A stretch of DNA of 64,000 nucleotides, taken from the IMG/VR virus record IMGVR_UViG_3300042890_001190, positions 1,951-65,950 of that record. One strand, 5' to 3'. This DNA comes from a virus. Lineage: Duplodnaviria; Caudoviricetes. The notes under the pieces were generated by a model that was not told the origin of the DNA, did no database searches, and saw only the letters and a list, made by a program, of their open reading frames with translations. The translations under genes and the position numbers were made by a program. Below, in pieces: positions 9,161 to 23,685 of the stretch (its first letter is position 1; every line of letters starts with the position of its first letter).

Positions 9161-9179
9161 CCCACAGGAGAAACACACC

Positions 9180-9572
9180 ATGAAACCCCAAGACCTTCAA
9201 ACACTCGCAGCCGCAGCCTTGATGCCCGCAGGTTTTCGCCACCACGACAGCGGAGAGCCAGCCGAGCCCGCAGCAGTCACCGCAGCCGCAGCAATCGCCG
9301 CCAAAGTAGACGAGCTGGGCCAGCTTCACGCGACCATGGCCGACATAAAACGCAAGGCCGACCGTATCCGCACAGAACTAGAAAACGCCGGGTTATCAGA
9401 CATAGAAGGCCAACTCTACCGGGTGAACTTTGCACAATGCGCGGGCAAGAGCTTGACCGACTGGCAAGCAATCGCCCAGCGCCTGAAAGCCAGCGCCCAA
9501 CTGATACGCGCATACACCAAGACGGGCGAAGCCAGCACCCGCATGACCGTAAAAGCACGCCAGACACACTAA
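9180..9572 (+). CDS. early hypothetical protein (coiled-coil)
   Basis: ATG 9180 after CAGGAGAAACACACC; VDELGQL..IEGQLYRV..TDWQAIA pattern. Confidence 0.75.
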   Translation: MKPQDLQTLAAAALMPAGFRHHDSGEPAEPAAVTAAAAIAAKVDELGQLHATMADIKRKADRIRTELENAGLSDIEGQLYRVNFAQCAGKSLTDWQAIAQRLKASAQLIRAYTKTGEASTRMTVKARQTH

Positions 9573-17569: not shown

Positions 17570-18048
17570 CCCCAAAACAAGAAGAAGCGTTGCGAGATTA
17601 CTTGCGTGAAACTGTCGTGCCGTTAATCGAAGATGTGCTGACCAAGAAACTGGGGCAAGCCCTGACGTTTGCAAAAAAAGAACTGGCAGAGCAGCCAGCA
17701 CAGCAGGACAGTACGTGCAGCAACGCACTACGCGCTCAGGGCAAAGCATACCCCCGCACCTGCAAGAAATGTGGGCTTGGGCCTTGCATTGAGTTGGCAC
17801 AGCAAGCCCTCGACAAGAAGGCAGAGAACGCCAGAGAGTTGGGGCTGGACTATGAGCCAGTGCAAGACAGCGGCATTGTTACCGCTGGTGGCTTTGACCC
17901 GCGCACACAGCGCACATGGGTTGGGTTGACGGATGAGGAGAGGGACGCAATGATCGGCGTAACCGACTTATCTGGCACGTACTACTACGATGATCTGTAC
18001 GCAGTTATTTTGCTTGCCGAGGGCAAACTCAAGGAGAAGAACAAATGA
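17566..18048 (+). CDS. mosaic hypothetical protein ending WVGLTDEE..EGKLKEKNK
   Basis: ATGA-coupled; shares DNA modules with the next gene. Confidence 0.7.
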   Translation: MTPKQEEALRDYLRETVVPLIEDVLTKKLGQALTFAKKELAEQPAQQDSTCSNALRAQGKAYPRTCKKCGLGPCIELAQQALDKKAENARELGLDYEPVQDSGIVTAGGFDPRTQRTWVGLTDEERDAMIGVTDLSGTYYYDDLYAVILLAEGKLKEKNK

Positions 18049-19763: not shown

Positions 19764-20470
19764 CCACCCAACTTATTCGTTCCTCCATGAAATTGATGGC
19801 TGACGCTGGAGTCGATATTGTTGACATGAAATGGTTTGACATGACTGGCGCAGTTGGAGATAAGCAAAGAGCCAACCTTGATCCGGTGATGACGCATAGA
19901 CCACCGTTCAACAAATGTTTTGTTGCGTGGCAGGGCAAGACAAGCCACCACCCAAGCTACGAGGTTTTGATGCTGGTGGCGGGAGAAGACCCAGACGAGG
20001 GTATTTCTGTGTCCATGTGGAAAGGCCCATCTGGAACACGTTTGCACCCCATCCCTGCAATGTTTTACTTCATTGAAGGTGACCAGATTCGATATGGTTC
20101 CGTCAACGAAGATGAACCCGTAGACAAAGAGCTTGCTGAGTTGATGTTGGCGCAACTTGGAGCGTGGTACGGGGCTATGGATAGTCGCATGGAGGCATAC
20201 ACCCCATCGGTGCGCGACACGTTCACCAACCGCCGCAAGATTCAGCAAGGGAAATTGCCAACCTACGACTGGACAACGGTCTGGATTGAGCCAGCAAAAC
20301 CTCGATCAGAGGGTAAGGGGGGTACACACGCATCACCTCGCTTGCATGACCGCCGTGGTCATTTGCGGAGGCTTGCAAGTGGTAAGAATGTCTGGGTGAA
20401 GTCTTGCAAGGTGGGAGATGCCAGCAAAGGTGCGATATTTCACGACTACGCTATCAAGGAGAACACATGA
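19760..20470 (+). CDS. conserved phage protein with HASPRLHDRRGHLR motif
   Basis: 236 aa, ATGA-coupled on both sides. Confidence 0.75.
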   Translation: MTTQLIRSSMKLMADAGVDIVDMKWFDMTGAVGDKQRANLDPVMTHRPPFNKCFVAWQGKTSHHPSYEVLMLVAGEDPDEGISVSMWKGPSGTRLHPIPAMFYFIEGDQIRYGSVNEDEPVDKELAELMLAQLGAWYGAMDSRMEAYTPSVRDTFTNRRKIQQGKLPTYDWTTVWIEPAKPRSEGKGGTHASPRLHDRRGHLRRLASGKNVWVKSCKVGDASKGAIFHDYAIKENT

Positions 20471-20556
20471 CCTGTAAACACCGCTGGATACCCGGCGACA
20501 ACCAAGACCGACCCGCATACCGTTGCACCCGCTGTGGTGATTGGAGATTTGTATGA
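20467..20556 (+). CDS. 29-aa Zn-ribbon peptide (MTCKHRWIPG..YRCTRCG)
   Basis: not in ORF track; ATGA overlaps; paralog of 17474..17569. Confidence 0.6.
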   Translation: MTCKHRWIPGDNQDRPAYRCTRCGDWRFV

Positions 20557-20678
20557 CCGATTTTGTAGAGTTTATTTGGATGTGGGCCGTGGGCATGATA
20601 TTGCTGGTAACGCTGCCCATCTGGTTTATCCCGTACACCGCTTATAGGGCTTGGAAATTTTTTAAGGAAAGCACATGA
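20553..20678 (+). CDS. 41-aa single-pass membrane peptide
   Basis: not in ORF track; MTDFVEFIWMWAVGMILLVTLPIWFIPY..; ATGA overlaps. Confidence 0.55.
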   Translation: MTDFVEFIWMWAVGMILLVTLPIWFIPYTAYRAWKFFKEST

Positions 20679-20863
20679 AAAAAGACTCCAAAGCATGGGC
20701 CATCAAGCTCAGAGGCCGTAACTTCTACTTGTCCAGCACTGGGTATCCGTGGACATTCATGACCAAGAAAGAGGCCGAGAGCTTCGCCCGAAACGTGGCG
20801 CGGCACTACGGCACAACAGCTCAACCAATCCGCGTCAGAGTACGCATAGAGGAGCAATCATGA
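20675..20863 (+). CDS. hypothetical protein
   Basis: 62 aa, SD AAGGA. Confidence 0.65.
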   Translation: MKKDSKAWAIKLRGRNFYLSSTGYPWTFMTKKEAESFARNVARHYGTTAQPIRVRVRIEEQS

Positions 20864-21051
20864 TCAACGTATACCCAACCCGCATCGAGGCCGCAGACGA
20901 GGACGGCAACATCCTGTTCGCGCTTCAAATGGAAGATGCCCACTGCTGCACCATTGAGATCAAGAACCCACTGGTACTGAGCAATGGCAACCTAGAGCAA
21001 GTGCTGACCGCCGTGCGCCGTGGCGTGCAGATGCTTGGACTGGAGGACTGA
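20860..21051 (+). CDS. hypothetical protein
   Basis: ATG 20860 after GAGGAG. Confidence 0.65.
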   Translation: MINVYPTRIEAADEDGNILFALQMEDAHCCTIEIKNPLVLSNGNLEQVLTAVRRGVQMLGLED

Positions 21052-21068
21052 GCCGCTACGCTCCGGGA

Positions 21069-21093
21069 AGCCCGCCACCGTGCGGGTTTTTTT
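21069..21093 (+). terminator. rho-independent terminator
   Basis: GCCCGC-CACCGT-GCGGGT plus T run at a convergent junction. Confidence 0.7.
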
Positions 21094-21448
21094 ACGCCAG
21101 CATCTCACCCATTGCTGCTTGAGCCAAGGCGTCTGTGTGCTCGCAATCCTCCCATGGCGGAGTGGTGCAGTTGCACAGTGGCACGAAAACAGCAGGGCCG
21201 GTAATGACAGGCTTTGGGGCATGAACTTTGGGTTGGCTTTTCGGCTTCAATTGCTTTGATGGCTTTACCCTCTTGCCGCCATACCAATCCTTGACGTCCT
21301 GACCCATCCAGAGGGCGAAGGCACGTATGTCCAAAGGGTCAATGACGTACCAAGTTTTCCGGGCCGCATCCCAGCGAGCACCTTTGCTTTTTGCCAAGTC
21401 CTTTTGGCTGAACGGAACGTGCAAATCAACTCTCATTTCCATCTCCAA
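21092..21448 (-). CDS. DUF5710-like protein
   Basis: LHVPFSQKDLAKSKGARWDAARKTWY motif; start uncertain (TTG 21448 or nearby ATG). Confidence 0.7.
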   Translation of the reverse strand: MEMEMRVDLHVPFSQKDLAKSKGARWDAARKTWYVIDPLDIRAFALWMGQDVKDWYGGKRVKPSKQLKPKSQPKVHAPKPVITGPAVFVPLCNCTTPPWEDCEHTDALAQAAMGEMLA

Positions 21449-21449
21449 A

Positions 21450-22048
21450 TTTTTGGACGAGTTTCCACTTACCCATGTATCCTGCCTGCCCTCCCCGTGT
21501 TCACTGGGGCGAGGGTTAGGGGCTACGTGAACCCTTTATCGACCTGACTTGCCCTGTTCGTTGCCTGCCTAAGCAGTTCCTACTGTGAGCTATCGGAGCC
21601 TAGTCCGCCTGCCTTCTGGCTTAGCGTTACAGAGAGGATGATGGCCCTCTGTACGTGCATCACAGATCGCTCTGTGAACCCAGACGTTTCCATTGCTGGA
21701 AATATGGATTTTCCCCTTGCGGGGAGGTCGTTTATTCCGTTCGCTCTCGCTACTTGGACACTCGGTTTAAAGTGGGGTTGGCCTTTTCAGTGTTCCCTTC
21801 GCTACCGCCATGGGGGACTGGTCTGGAGTGGGTGCCGGAGATTTCTGCCGCATAAGCTAACGCGCCCTGACGGGTGGGCGGCACAAATGCAAAAAGCTCT
21901 TTAGTCGGGGATCGAGCTTTAGGCTTGGTTGCCGCCAATCCGCAGTGCTGTAACACGTACGAATAGCATTGACGAAGCCCGAGCACCCACTAAAGAGCTT
22001 TCGGATGTCGCTTTACAGAGCTAAGCCGGGTTACCAATCCGACTATGG
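21450..22048 (-). ncRNA. putative ~600-nt structured RNA
   Basis: no credible CDS; own promoter; three perfect GNRA hairpins on the minus strand; 13-bp long-range stem 21893-21905/21989-22001. Confidence 0.55.
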
Positions 22049-22052
22049 CGTC

Positions 22053-22082
22053 AGTATATCAAAGACGTTGGTGGACGTGCAA
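22053..22082 (-). promoter_or_regulatory. sigma70 promoter of the structured RNA
   Basis: TTGCAC-18 nt-TATACT with TG extended -10. Confidence 0.65.
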
Positions 22083-22084
22083 GC

Positions 22085-22110
22085 AAAAAAACCCCACGTC
22101 TGAGGTGGGG
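22085..22110 (-). terminator. rho-independent terminator
   Basis: CCCCAC-CTCAGAC-GTGGGG-T7. Confidence 0.8.
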
Positions 22111-22144
22111 TAAATTCACTCAAGGAGAAACACCATGAAACACG
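22085..22144 (-). ncRNA. putative ~60-nt anti-RBS small RNA
   Basis: bounded by promoter 22150-22178 and terminator; contains GUUUCAUGGUGUUUCUCCUUGAGU (anti-AUG plus anti-SD). Confidence 0.55.
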
Positions 22145-22149
22145 CCTGT

Positions 22150-22178
22150 AGTTTAGCCGCAGGTGCGCAGCAGTGCAA
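22150..22178 (-). promoter_or_regulatory. sigma70 promoter inside the 3' end of the VRR-NUC gene
   Basis: TTGCAC-17 nt-TAAACT; the -10 overlaps the stop codon. Confidence 0.6.
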
Positions 22179-22437
22179 CGGCCTCTTCTACGCTGTTCAC
22201 GATGTACAGGTCTGATCCCGGCCACTCGTCGTGGAACTTCTGCTCCGCGTCCGTCAGCCGGCGTGCCGATGGCGACTTAGCCCCGTCCTTCACCTCAATC
22301 AGCAGGGTCTCCCCACGGTAGCTCACCAGCAGGTCAAACAGCCCCTCGTCGTTGATCTGCTTGACGTAAGCACCCTCGGCACGCATGGCTGCCACGATCT
22401 CTTTTTCGTTGTCGTCTCTGCGAGCTGCTCGTCTCAT
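22153..22437 (-). CDS. VRR-NUC / PD-(D/E)XK nuclease (resolvase-like)
   Basis: RRAARRDDNEKEIV..GLFDLLV..LIEVKDG..LTDAEQKFHDEW. Confidence 0.8.
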   Translation of the reverse strand: MRRAARRDDNEKEIVAAMRAEGAYVKQINDEGLFDLLVSYRGETLLIEVKDGAKSPSARRLTDAEQKFHDEWPGSDLYIVNSVEEAVALLRTCG

Positions 22438-22482
22438 AGGGTTTGTCCTGAGAAAAATATATTGCATTCATCGTAACAGATG

Positions 22483-22511
22483 TTGTGTTGTTGGCTTATA
22501 CCTGATACATT
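22483..22511 (+). promoter_or_regulatory. putative promoter of the recombination operon
   Basis: TTGTGT-17 nt-TACATT with TG extension; same TGATACATT as at 7672. Confidence 0.5.
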
Positions 22512-22541
22512 AAAGGCTCACTCACCACACAGGAGCAGGGA

Positions 22542-22793
22542 ATGACACCAGAAGAAGAGCACAAGGAAGGGATGGAGACTCTTTACCGGGCAGTGCATAT
22601 CGCCAACAAGTTTGGCCCACTGATCGTTGAAGACGCAGACAAACTTGGCGGCACAGCAGCCACGGCGGCAGCCATCATGCTGTCCACGTTCACAAGCGCC
22701 ATGGGCATGACCTTGCACGATGCTATGGGCCTGTTCATGGCGGTGCATAAGCAGACCATGGCAATGGAGCGCGAAGATGAAGCTGACCAATAA
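22542..22793 (+). CDS. hypothetical protein
   Basis: 83 aa, SD CAGGAG. Confidence 0.65.
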   Translation: MTPEEEHKEGMETLYRAVHIANKFGPLIVEDADKLGGTAATAAAIMLSTFTSAMGMTLHDAMGLFMAVHKQTMAMEREDEADQ

Positions 22794-23685
22794 CTTCGGC
22801 ATGCCTGAGACGATCCTCAACGTGATCGCACGGCCACAGTACAGCAAGGGCAAAGCCAACATGTCTGTGACGGAGCTGCTCAACAGTCCACGGATTGTCC
22901 AGCTCAAGCGCAAGCATTGGAATGACCTGACAGAGGACGCAGCCGACATGGTGTGGTCCATCTTCGGCACGGCCATTCACAACATCTTGGAGCACGGCAA
23001 GGGCGACAACCACATCGTTGAAGAGCGTATTCACATTGAACTGGACGGCATGCACATCAGCGGCGCTATTGACCTGCAAGAGGTGGAGCCAGACGGCATC
23101 ATCGTGTCGGACTACAAGACCGTCGGCGCGTGGTCGGTGCTTAACGAGAAGCAGGACTGGCACAACCAACTCAACAGCTACGCCTACCTTGTTGAAGCGG
23201 CCAAGAAGCTGCCCGTGATCAAGTTGCAGATCGTGGCTATCGTGCGCGACTGGAGCCGCCGTGACGCAGCAACACGCGAGGGATACCCCAAGGCACCCAT
23301 CGTGGTGATTGACATCCCTCTGTGGTCGTTTGAAGAGCGCGAAGCCTACGTCCGCAGCCGCATCTCTTTGCATGGCGACGCACTTTTTGAGATGGAGACT
23401 GACGGCGAGATGCCTGAATGCACGCCCGAGGAGTGTTGGGAAAAGCCAACAATGTACGCCCTGAAGAAGGATGGCAACGTCCGGGCCAAGAGCGTACACG
23501 AAACAAGCGAGGCAGCAGACACGGCTCTGGCTGCCGCAACAGAAAAAGCCAAGAAGGGCGAGAAGTTCCTGATCGAAGTTCGTGAGGGGAACCGCACTCG
23601 CTGTTCTAGCTTTTGCCAAGTGGCTGGCATGTGCAGCCAATATCAAAAGTATCTTTCTACCAAGCCAACTCAAGGAGAAATCTAA
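22777..23685 (+). CDS. PD-(D/E)XK exonuclease (Cas4/RecB-like)
   Basis: GTAIHNILE, EERI, ISGAIDL, VSDYKT, QLNSYA, C-terminal RCSSFCQV..C. Confidence 0.82.
   Translation: MKLTNNFGMPETILNVIARPQYSKGKANMSVTELLNSPRIVQLKRKHWNDLTEDAADMVWSIFGTAIHNILEHGKGDNHIVEERIHIELDGMHISGAIDLQEVEPDGIIVSDYKTVGAWSVLNEKQDWHNQLNSYAYLVEAAKKLPVIKLQIVAIVRDWSRRDAATREGYPKAPIVVIDIPLWSFEEREAYVRSRISLHGDALFEMETDGEMPECTPEECWEKPTMYALKKDGNVRAKSVHETSEAADTALAAATEKAKKGEKFLIEVREGNRTRCSSFCQVAGMCSQYQKYLSTKPTQGEI

Follow-up and report, generated by a model that had tools for sequence, protein, structure and literature searches.

DapZ and MicL are sRNAs of the 3′UTR type, i.e. their promoter lies inside the upstream open reading frame (ORF), their terminator is shared with the mRNA, and their seed targets translation-initiation regions. 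Both are enterobacterial host RNAs that depend on Hfq and have defined regulons. Among phages and prophages, P22 sar, P1/P7 c4, lambda OOP, and DicF of the Qin prophage are terminator-bearing RNAs of 50–80 nt that occlude a ribosome binding site (RBS); sar, c4, and OOP each have a defined target in cis or in the neighborhood. Very little is known of regulatory RNAs in lytic phages that have not been cultured. As a further class for comparison, we took the 'double-hairpin' or toxic small RNAs of Burkholderia (Rfam family RF02278; ncS03, ncS05, ncS27, and ncS62) and the NmsRs of Neisseria. The RF02278 type is described as short RNAs with two hairpins and unpaired CU-rich stretches that are reverse complements of RBSs (PMC5688073), and over-expression of such RNAs slows growth (PMC5688073, PMC4603805).

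The stretch of DNA analyzed here (the window) comprises 64,000 of the 65,950 bases of IMG/VR virus record IMGVR_UViG_3300042890_001190, which CheckV rates as complete. The region is present in DNA from lake-water metagenomes; the 24 sequencing runs listed for it come from such metagenomes and from a coded organism, and none of them is an RNA run. The large terminase was closest to that of Phage DSL-LC04 (55.8% identity), followed by that of Pelagibacter phage HTVC027P (48.8%). Searching the GenBank phages with positions 21400–22600 by blastn, in near as well as distant modes, returned no match, and Rfam reported nothing over the whole window at the gathering threshold.

We regard an independently transcribed phage small RNA that would occlude translation-initiation regions as the best explanation of the element described below, with a probability of roughly 0.55. 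The evidence for the gene itself is stronger than that for how it would act. Judging from its relatives, the element is far more than a chance arrangement, and its sequence would place it in a new family of a known kind, namely CU-rich anti-RBS sRNAs whose promoter sits within the ORF upstream of them. A literature search on phage-encoded anti-Shine-Dalgarno (SD) small RNAs, which was not exhaustive, yielded no description of this family. The promoter, the seed, and the terminator of the candidate are each backed by comparison over dozens of lake-water phage contigs. If expressed, it would mean that phages commonly carry anti-RBS RNAs, and it would offer a compact, testable handle on how translation is timed or biased.

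The element behind the endonuclease gene

The element is located in a short minus-strand island, which is flanked by two plus-strand gene blocks and also contains an endonuclease gene. The nuclease ORF spans 22153–22467 on the minus strand, with a probable true start (MRRAARRD) at 22437 that is kept in nuclease relatives, giving a gene of 94 aa (22437–22153). Its product matched the PHROG family phrog_93 ('endonuclease', E = 1.1 × 10−5). No Pfam family was matched at E ≤ 0.01, so the more specific name VRR-NUC stays a label of the original prediction. Relatives of the protein were found in 46 records of GenBank phages, all below 48% identity. Only three distant relatives (41–53% identity) turned up in bacterial genomes, which therefore give no clue to the host.

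The promoter, the anti-RBS stretch, and the terminator were all found where they had been predicted, on the minus strand between 22178 and 22084. A −35-like hexamer, TTGCAC (22173–22178), lies in the last nuclease codons and is separated by a 17-nt spacer from the −10 hexamer TAAACT (22150–22155), whose TAA terminates the nuclease reading frame. This putative sigma-70-type promoter would thus have its −10 element laid over the stop codon. The stretch downstream of TAAACT reads GUGUUUCAUGGUGUUUCUCCUUGAGUG, and transcription would begin a few bases downstream of the −10 element, probably near 22143/22144. The predicted single-stranded 5′ body (22112–22144, minus strand) contains an anti-AUG CAU (22136–22134) and an anti-SD core, UUUCUCCUU; the 5′ stretch of the element is complementary to ACTCAAGGAGAAACACCATGAAAC, i.e. 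to an SD sequence, a spacer, and AUG AAA. The body would be largely unstructured, and in this phage the complement of spacer, AUG, and AAA surrounds its pyrimidine-rich CUCC core. It is followed by an intrinsic terminator detected by terminator scan (22084–22111, minus strand), with the stem ACCCCAC/GUGGGGU (22111–22091), a 7-nt loop, and a U7 tail. From the nuclease stop (22153) to the next promoter this is the sole terminator-like site, and it is common to the nuclease mRNA and the element. The RNA, of about 60 nt, would accordingly share its 3′ end with that mRNA.

Taken by itself, the window promoter is weak (3/6 and 4/6 matches, 7/12 in total). A sigma-70 scan called nothing across 20500–23500, the element promoter included. 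The fold of the 62-nt RNA was no more stable than that of shuffled sequences (z = −0.74; 46 of 200 shuffles were equal or better). With a weak promoter and an ordinary fold, the case for more than chance depends on conservation in relatives and not on the window alone. In a blastn search against GenBank phages, the 62-nt RNA gave only partial, RBS-like matches that covered at most 50% of the query at E ≥ 0.04.

These properties also bear on a reading in which the element is only the 3′UTR and terminator of the nuclease mRNA, without a promoter of its own. Its CU-rich stretch would then act in cis, e.g. by pairing with the nuclease RBS, by affecting mRNA stability, or through processing into a 3′UTR-derived RNA. 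The terminator necessarily ends the nuclease mRNA, and the scan left the window promoter uncalled, as this reading would have it. We nevertheless consider it rather unlikely, mainly on the evidence from relatives and from pairing given below.

Directly past the terminator, a second minus-strand promoter was noted, TTGCAC-18-TATACT, with a TGA before the −10 hexamer (extended −10-like). The element had been proposed to share its −35 with this downstream unit. The hexamer TTGCAC does occur again at 22078–22073, but as part of a separate promoter, so that only the recurrence of the hexamer stands. This second promoter is followed by a stretch of about 600 nt without a convincing ORF (within 21450–22078, minus strand), which ends at the start (21436) of a DUF5710 gene (21436–21092, minus strand). 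The ORF-free stretch was 98% identical in two relatives and 71–81% identical over about 180–250 nt in others. It had no Rfam match and may represent a long leader or else a structured RNA of large size. Within it, a terminator-like hairpin was observed on the plus strand (21707–21729), which would halt read-through from the plus-strand block at 17.5–21 kb ahead of the small-RNA gene.

Promoter, core, and terminator in related loci

Conservation in relatives had been proposed as a check of the original prediction. When IMG/VR was searched with the nuclease protein, 109 relatives were obtained, and 80 loci were retained for analysis. The element was present downstream of the nuclease stop in 42 of these and absent in 38, mostly more distant relatives in which another gene directly follows the nuclease. 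Together with the window, the 42 loci gave 43 sequences, corresponding to 34 unique variants with protein identities down to 54%. The variants fall into several subgroups that differ in nearly everything but the promoter, the CU-rich core, and the terminator.

In 33 of the 34 variants, a TAnnnT hexamer overlaps the stop codon as a −10 element; in the remaining one, a TATAAT is shifted by 2 nt. Six such hexamers were seen (TAAACT, TAAGAT, TAGCAT, TAGTAT, TAGAAT, and TAATAT), i.e. positions 3–5 varied while T6 was constant. A −35-like hexamer with 3–6 of 6 matches stood exactly 17 nt from the −10 in all 34 variants, and the promoters scored 7–10 of 12, e.g. TTGACA-17-TAAGAT, TGGACA-17-TAGCAT, and TTGAAG-17-TAATAT. 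In diverged subgroups the −35-like hexamers included TTGACA, TGGACA, TTTACA, and TTGAAG. Part of this −35 conservation may be driven by the protein, as the hexamer lies within the coding sequence for a conserved C-terminal helix. As background, TAA and TAG trinucleotides in the same loci displayed the stop-overlapping promoter layout at a rate of 0.039, and it occurred in 2 of 29 relatives without the element (the 38 minus 9 duplicates). The stop codon was TAA or TAG in all 34 variants and never TGA, compared with TGA in 18 of the 29 relatives without the element. One extra relative, recovered by pattern search, has a TGA stop, yet carries TTGACA-18-GACAAT.

A passive 3′UTR leaves unexplained both the TAnnnT hexamer over the stop codon with its 17-nt spacing (34/34) and the avoidance of TGA. 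Judged by comparison only, all 34 variants have a predicted promoter within the upstream ORF or at its end, as DapZ and MicL do. The element resembles these two RNAs in this predicted promoter position, in the terminator held in common with the mRNA, and in a seed that would address translation-initiation regions. It differs from them in that its −10 precisely overlaps the stop codon. The −10 hexamer over a stop codon could serve as a search rule for further hidden RNA genes.

The CU-rich core was similarly persistent. CUCC was located 5′ of the terminator in 30 of the 34 variants and in the terminator loop in two, and was lost in two (L025 and L034). It appeared mostly as UUCUCCU, at times as ACCUCCUU or ACUCCUU. 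An intrinsic terminator follows in every variant, and its six pairs were kept in all 15 aligned group-A sequences. For the subgroup of the window (15 close variants), the consensus fold consisted of the terminator hairpin alone, with the 5′ 30 nt open. One subgroup of six variants showed three hairpins and two CU stretches, with a CU stretch between hairpins. Hairpin 2 of this subgroup was rebuilt from three unrelated stem sequences (compensating replacements), and the loop of hairpin 1 bears a second CCUCC. The accessibility of CUCC was moderate, with a mean unpaired probability of 0.62 versus 0.53 for the body. It reached at least 0.5 in 18 of 30 variants and was 0.47 in the window.

Among Rfam families, the best match was RF02278 (25.3 bits, E = 0.015, 22084–22130 on the minus strand). 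This score lies below the gathering score of 50, so the element is not a member. The match was driven by UCUCCU and the terminator, and none was seen in the loci of 12 relatives at E ≤ 0.5. As the CU-rich stretches of the RF02278 family are described as anti-RBS, the mode of action predicted for the window element would be the same. Most phage variants have a single hairpin and the known family has two; moreover, the element is phage-borne and tied to the stop codon of a gene, whereas the family is chromosomal, with 3–5 copies per Burkholderia genome.

A real RBS on the opposite strand, or the relic of one, would also appear as a complement of a consensus RBS. On the plus strand, the sequence is ACTCAAGGAGAA, followed by 6 nt and ATG AAA (ATG at 22136, 26 codons). 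Possibly, this is a genuine RBS with a small ORF for a type I toxin or a leader peptide, and the minus-strand RNA would be a cis-antisense or a by-product. Over 12 bases, ACTCAAGGAGAA matches three genuine gene starts exactly, and an ATG or GTG was found at SD spacing on the plus strand in 23 of the 34 variants. In the other 11 variants no ATG, GTG, or TTG stood at SD spacing, and CUCC was kept although the start was gone (the pattern missed one further start, in L038, which was spotted by eye). The distance from the plus-strand start to the nuclease stop was 21, 22, 23, 24, 25, 27, 39, 42, or 46 nt, and hence the ORF passes over the antisense of the nuclease gene in each of the three frames. 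The peptides, with lengths from 7 to at least 26 aa, were unrelated among variants. Furthermore, the scan of 20500–23500 found no plus-strand promoter-like site, and the plus-strand RBS would stand directly behind the terminator hairpin. We therefore consider a functional small ORF very unlikely. The original prediction had named a conserved, translated ORF at this ATG as the finding that would overturn it, and the comparison speaks against such an ORF. A type I toxin–antitoxin pair, or a cis-antisense RNA to a small ORF, was accordingly rejected, as no conserved opposite-strand ORF was found among the 34 variants.

Predicted pairing with translation starts

Most likely, the small RNA would pair with the SD and start-codon regions of mRNAs and thereby block 30S binding. 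Exact copies of the 12-mer ACTCAAGGAGAA exist only on the plus strand, at 18027, 18785, 23668, and 22118, where the copy at 22118 is that of the element. These four matches compare with 0.22 expected, and none of 100 shuffles reached four. The copies at 18027, 18785, and 23668, which had been listed as RBS matches in the original prediction and hold as such, stand at gene starts, where the 12-mer reaches 5′ beyond the SD. It may represent a strong RBS cassette that was duplicated, or a regulatory site that the three starts share. A duplex scan also recovered the match proposed at 20454 and the one at the scaffold RBS (near 1524). The site at 9166–9186 is likewise real, with 19 paired bases around a 2-nt bulge in place of the 11 + 12 nt claimed.

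For an overview of possible targets, 76 genes were called heuristically and duplex energies of the 32-nt seed were computed against their −25 to +12 regions. As a control, we used 300 versions of the seed with shuffled flanks around UCUCCU. The mean of the real seed was reached by none of the 300 versions, its top five by two, and its single best site by 14. All five best predicted sites belong to plus-strand genes (9180, 9585, 19760, 18045, and 23685), and the best sites correspond to rightward genes of the replication and recombination region. The nuclease initiation region ranked 9th of 76. Across the 34 variants, the seeds displayed a preference of −1.13 kcal/mol for their own locus after two-way normalization, which was reached by 1 of 5000 permutations. 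Here, initiation regions in the own 6-kb locus were compared with those of other loci, and sites overlapping the element were left out. This small preference could reflect shared base composition.

Pairing with the nuclease RBS, one of the cis roles considered for a mere 3′UTR, can be judged by the same measure. The seed prefers its own nuclease initiation region by −1.0 kcal/mol, which lends weak support (124 of 5000 permutations reached this value), and the rank of that region points in the same direction. However, the pairing is itself weak, with a mean of −17 versus −25 to −30 at the best sites.

Covariation of individual targets with the RNA was not observed. The initiation region of the 23685 gene did not covary in 14 loci, and the 13-nt match at 23668 was kept only in the closest relatives. 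Likewise, no covariation was seen for the initiation region of the 9180 gene, where ACACCAUGAAAC was kept in four relatives whatever their RNA. The CUCC core is the only universal part of the seed, and the specific flanking matches are not universal. The original view of a self-contained sRNA antisense to an RBS thus stands in two respects, as the promoter–seed–terminator unit is kept in relatives and the seed outperforms shuffled flanks, and is qualified in a third, as no specific target covaries. No specific target is supported, and the RNA looks like an antisense of the generic strong initiation region of its phage. The flanks evolve fast between phages, from which it would follow that each RNA fits the general look of its own phage's initiation regions rather than one fixed target. 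In this it would differ from sar, c4, OOP, and DicF with their defined targets, as the opposite-strand ORF of the element is not conserved and no fixed trans target covaries. A multi-target translational repressor, whether it was to shut off early/middle genes or host mRNAs for MK-proteins as originally proposed, is plausible but unproven, and host mRNAs are possible targets.

The universality of the pyrimidine core alone, together with the absence of a covarying target, would also suit a CU-rich stretch that is not a pairing seed. It might bind a protein (Hfq, ribosomal protein S1, or an RNA-binding protein of the phage), or it might titrate a factor by mimicking the 3′ tail of 16S rRNA. In some variants the stretch is ACCUCCUU or UCCUCCUU, which we take to resemble that tail, and the terminator hairpin is unusually well kept, loop included. 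Against this, complementarity to initiation regions is not confined to the core but is increased by the flanks, and many variants also bear an AUG complement at SD-like spacing. We judge a protein site or tail mimic to be improbable, and occlusion of translation-initiation regions by pairing stays the preferred mechanism.

The terminator hairpin elsewhere and the RNA-gene island

The terminator hairpin CCCCACCUNAGACGUGGGG was found exactly in 101 IMG/VR stretches and 22 genome contigs. A T-rich tail followed it in 58 of 64 unique viral and 15 of 21 genomic contexts examined. CTCC was located at most 60 nt upstream in 32 of the 64 unique viral contexts, versus 6 of 64 for the reverse-complement control GGAG; in contexts not linked to the nuclease, the counts were 20 of 52 for CTCC and 6 of 52 for GGAG. 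The 19-nt hairpin CCCCACCTNAGACGTGGGG, with its loop included, was exact in 101 viral stretches (L085–L204, IMG/VR) and 22 genome contigs (L107–L128) of very different taxa. It stood mostly before a T-run, behind protein genes as well as behind small-RNA-like units.

Away from the nuclease gene, the identical terminator hairpin is joined to a good promoter and a CU-rich stretch in at least five further unit types (L131, L145, L147, L158, L163, L169, L179, and L201; L132, L137, L157, L174, and L177; L185 and L193; L091 and L095; and L099). One of them shows UUUUCCUCCUUCG in the hairpin loop behind TGTGTATAAT, and another has UUCUCC twice. One unit, preceded by TTGCGA-17-TATAGT, sits in the gap between two convergent genes. 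Another has a perfect TATAAT as its −10, laid over the TAA that ends an unrelated 984-aa ORF, a layout as in the window. Such units have promoters of their own well away from the end of any upstream gene, which is again at odds with the element being only the 3′UTR of the nuclease mRNA.

A much broader proposal can be put forward tentatively. The element might belong to an as yet undescribed superfamily of small RNAs in uncultured phages, characterized by a terminator hairpin that hardly varies, a stretch mimicking the 16S rRNA 3′ tail (UCUCCU, CCUCCUU), and a position at the head of RNA-gene islands, in some cases directly upstream of an initiator-like tRNA-Met. Its members would be general SD maskers without a single target, which would reprogram translation initiation by host shut-off or by a switch between classes of phage genes. 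We consider this unlikely as it stands.

The downstream surroundings of the small RNA were also inspected in the related loci. In many relatives, and not in the window, a conserved, stem-closed RNA-like module lies between the small RNA and the next promoter (L011:3386–3640, L018:1040–1300, L085:12560–12660, and the same position in many other loci). It starts with ..CCA(A/T)CACGCATGGGGA.. and ends with ..TCCCCAG(C/T)CGTG(A/T)TGG.., and gave no match with Rfam or ARAGORN. One copy contains an internal, T-arm-like GGTTCAAATCC. A scan of 18 loci showed tRNA genes behind the small RNA, and on its strand, in three of them (L038:2726–3122, L085:12761–13072, and L014:3686–3764), which makes the locus an RNA-gene island. 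tRNA-Met always came first, and two of the three tRNA-Met genes begin with CGCGG and show a mismatched top pair in the acceptor stem, a trait of initiator tRNAs.
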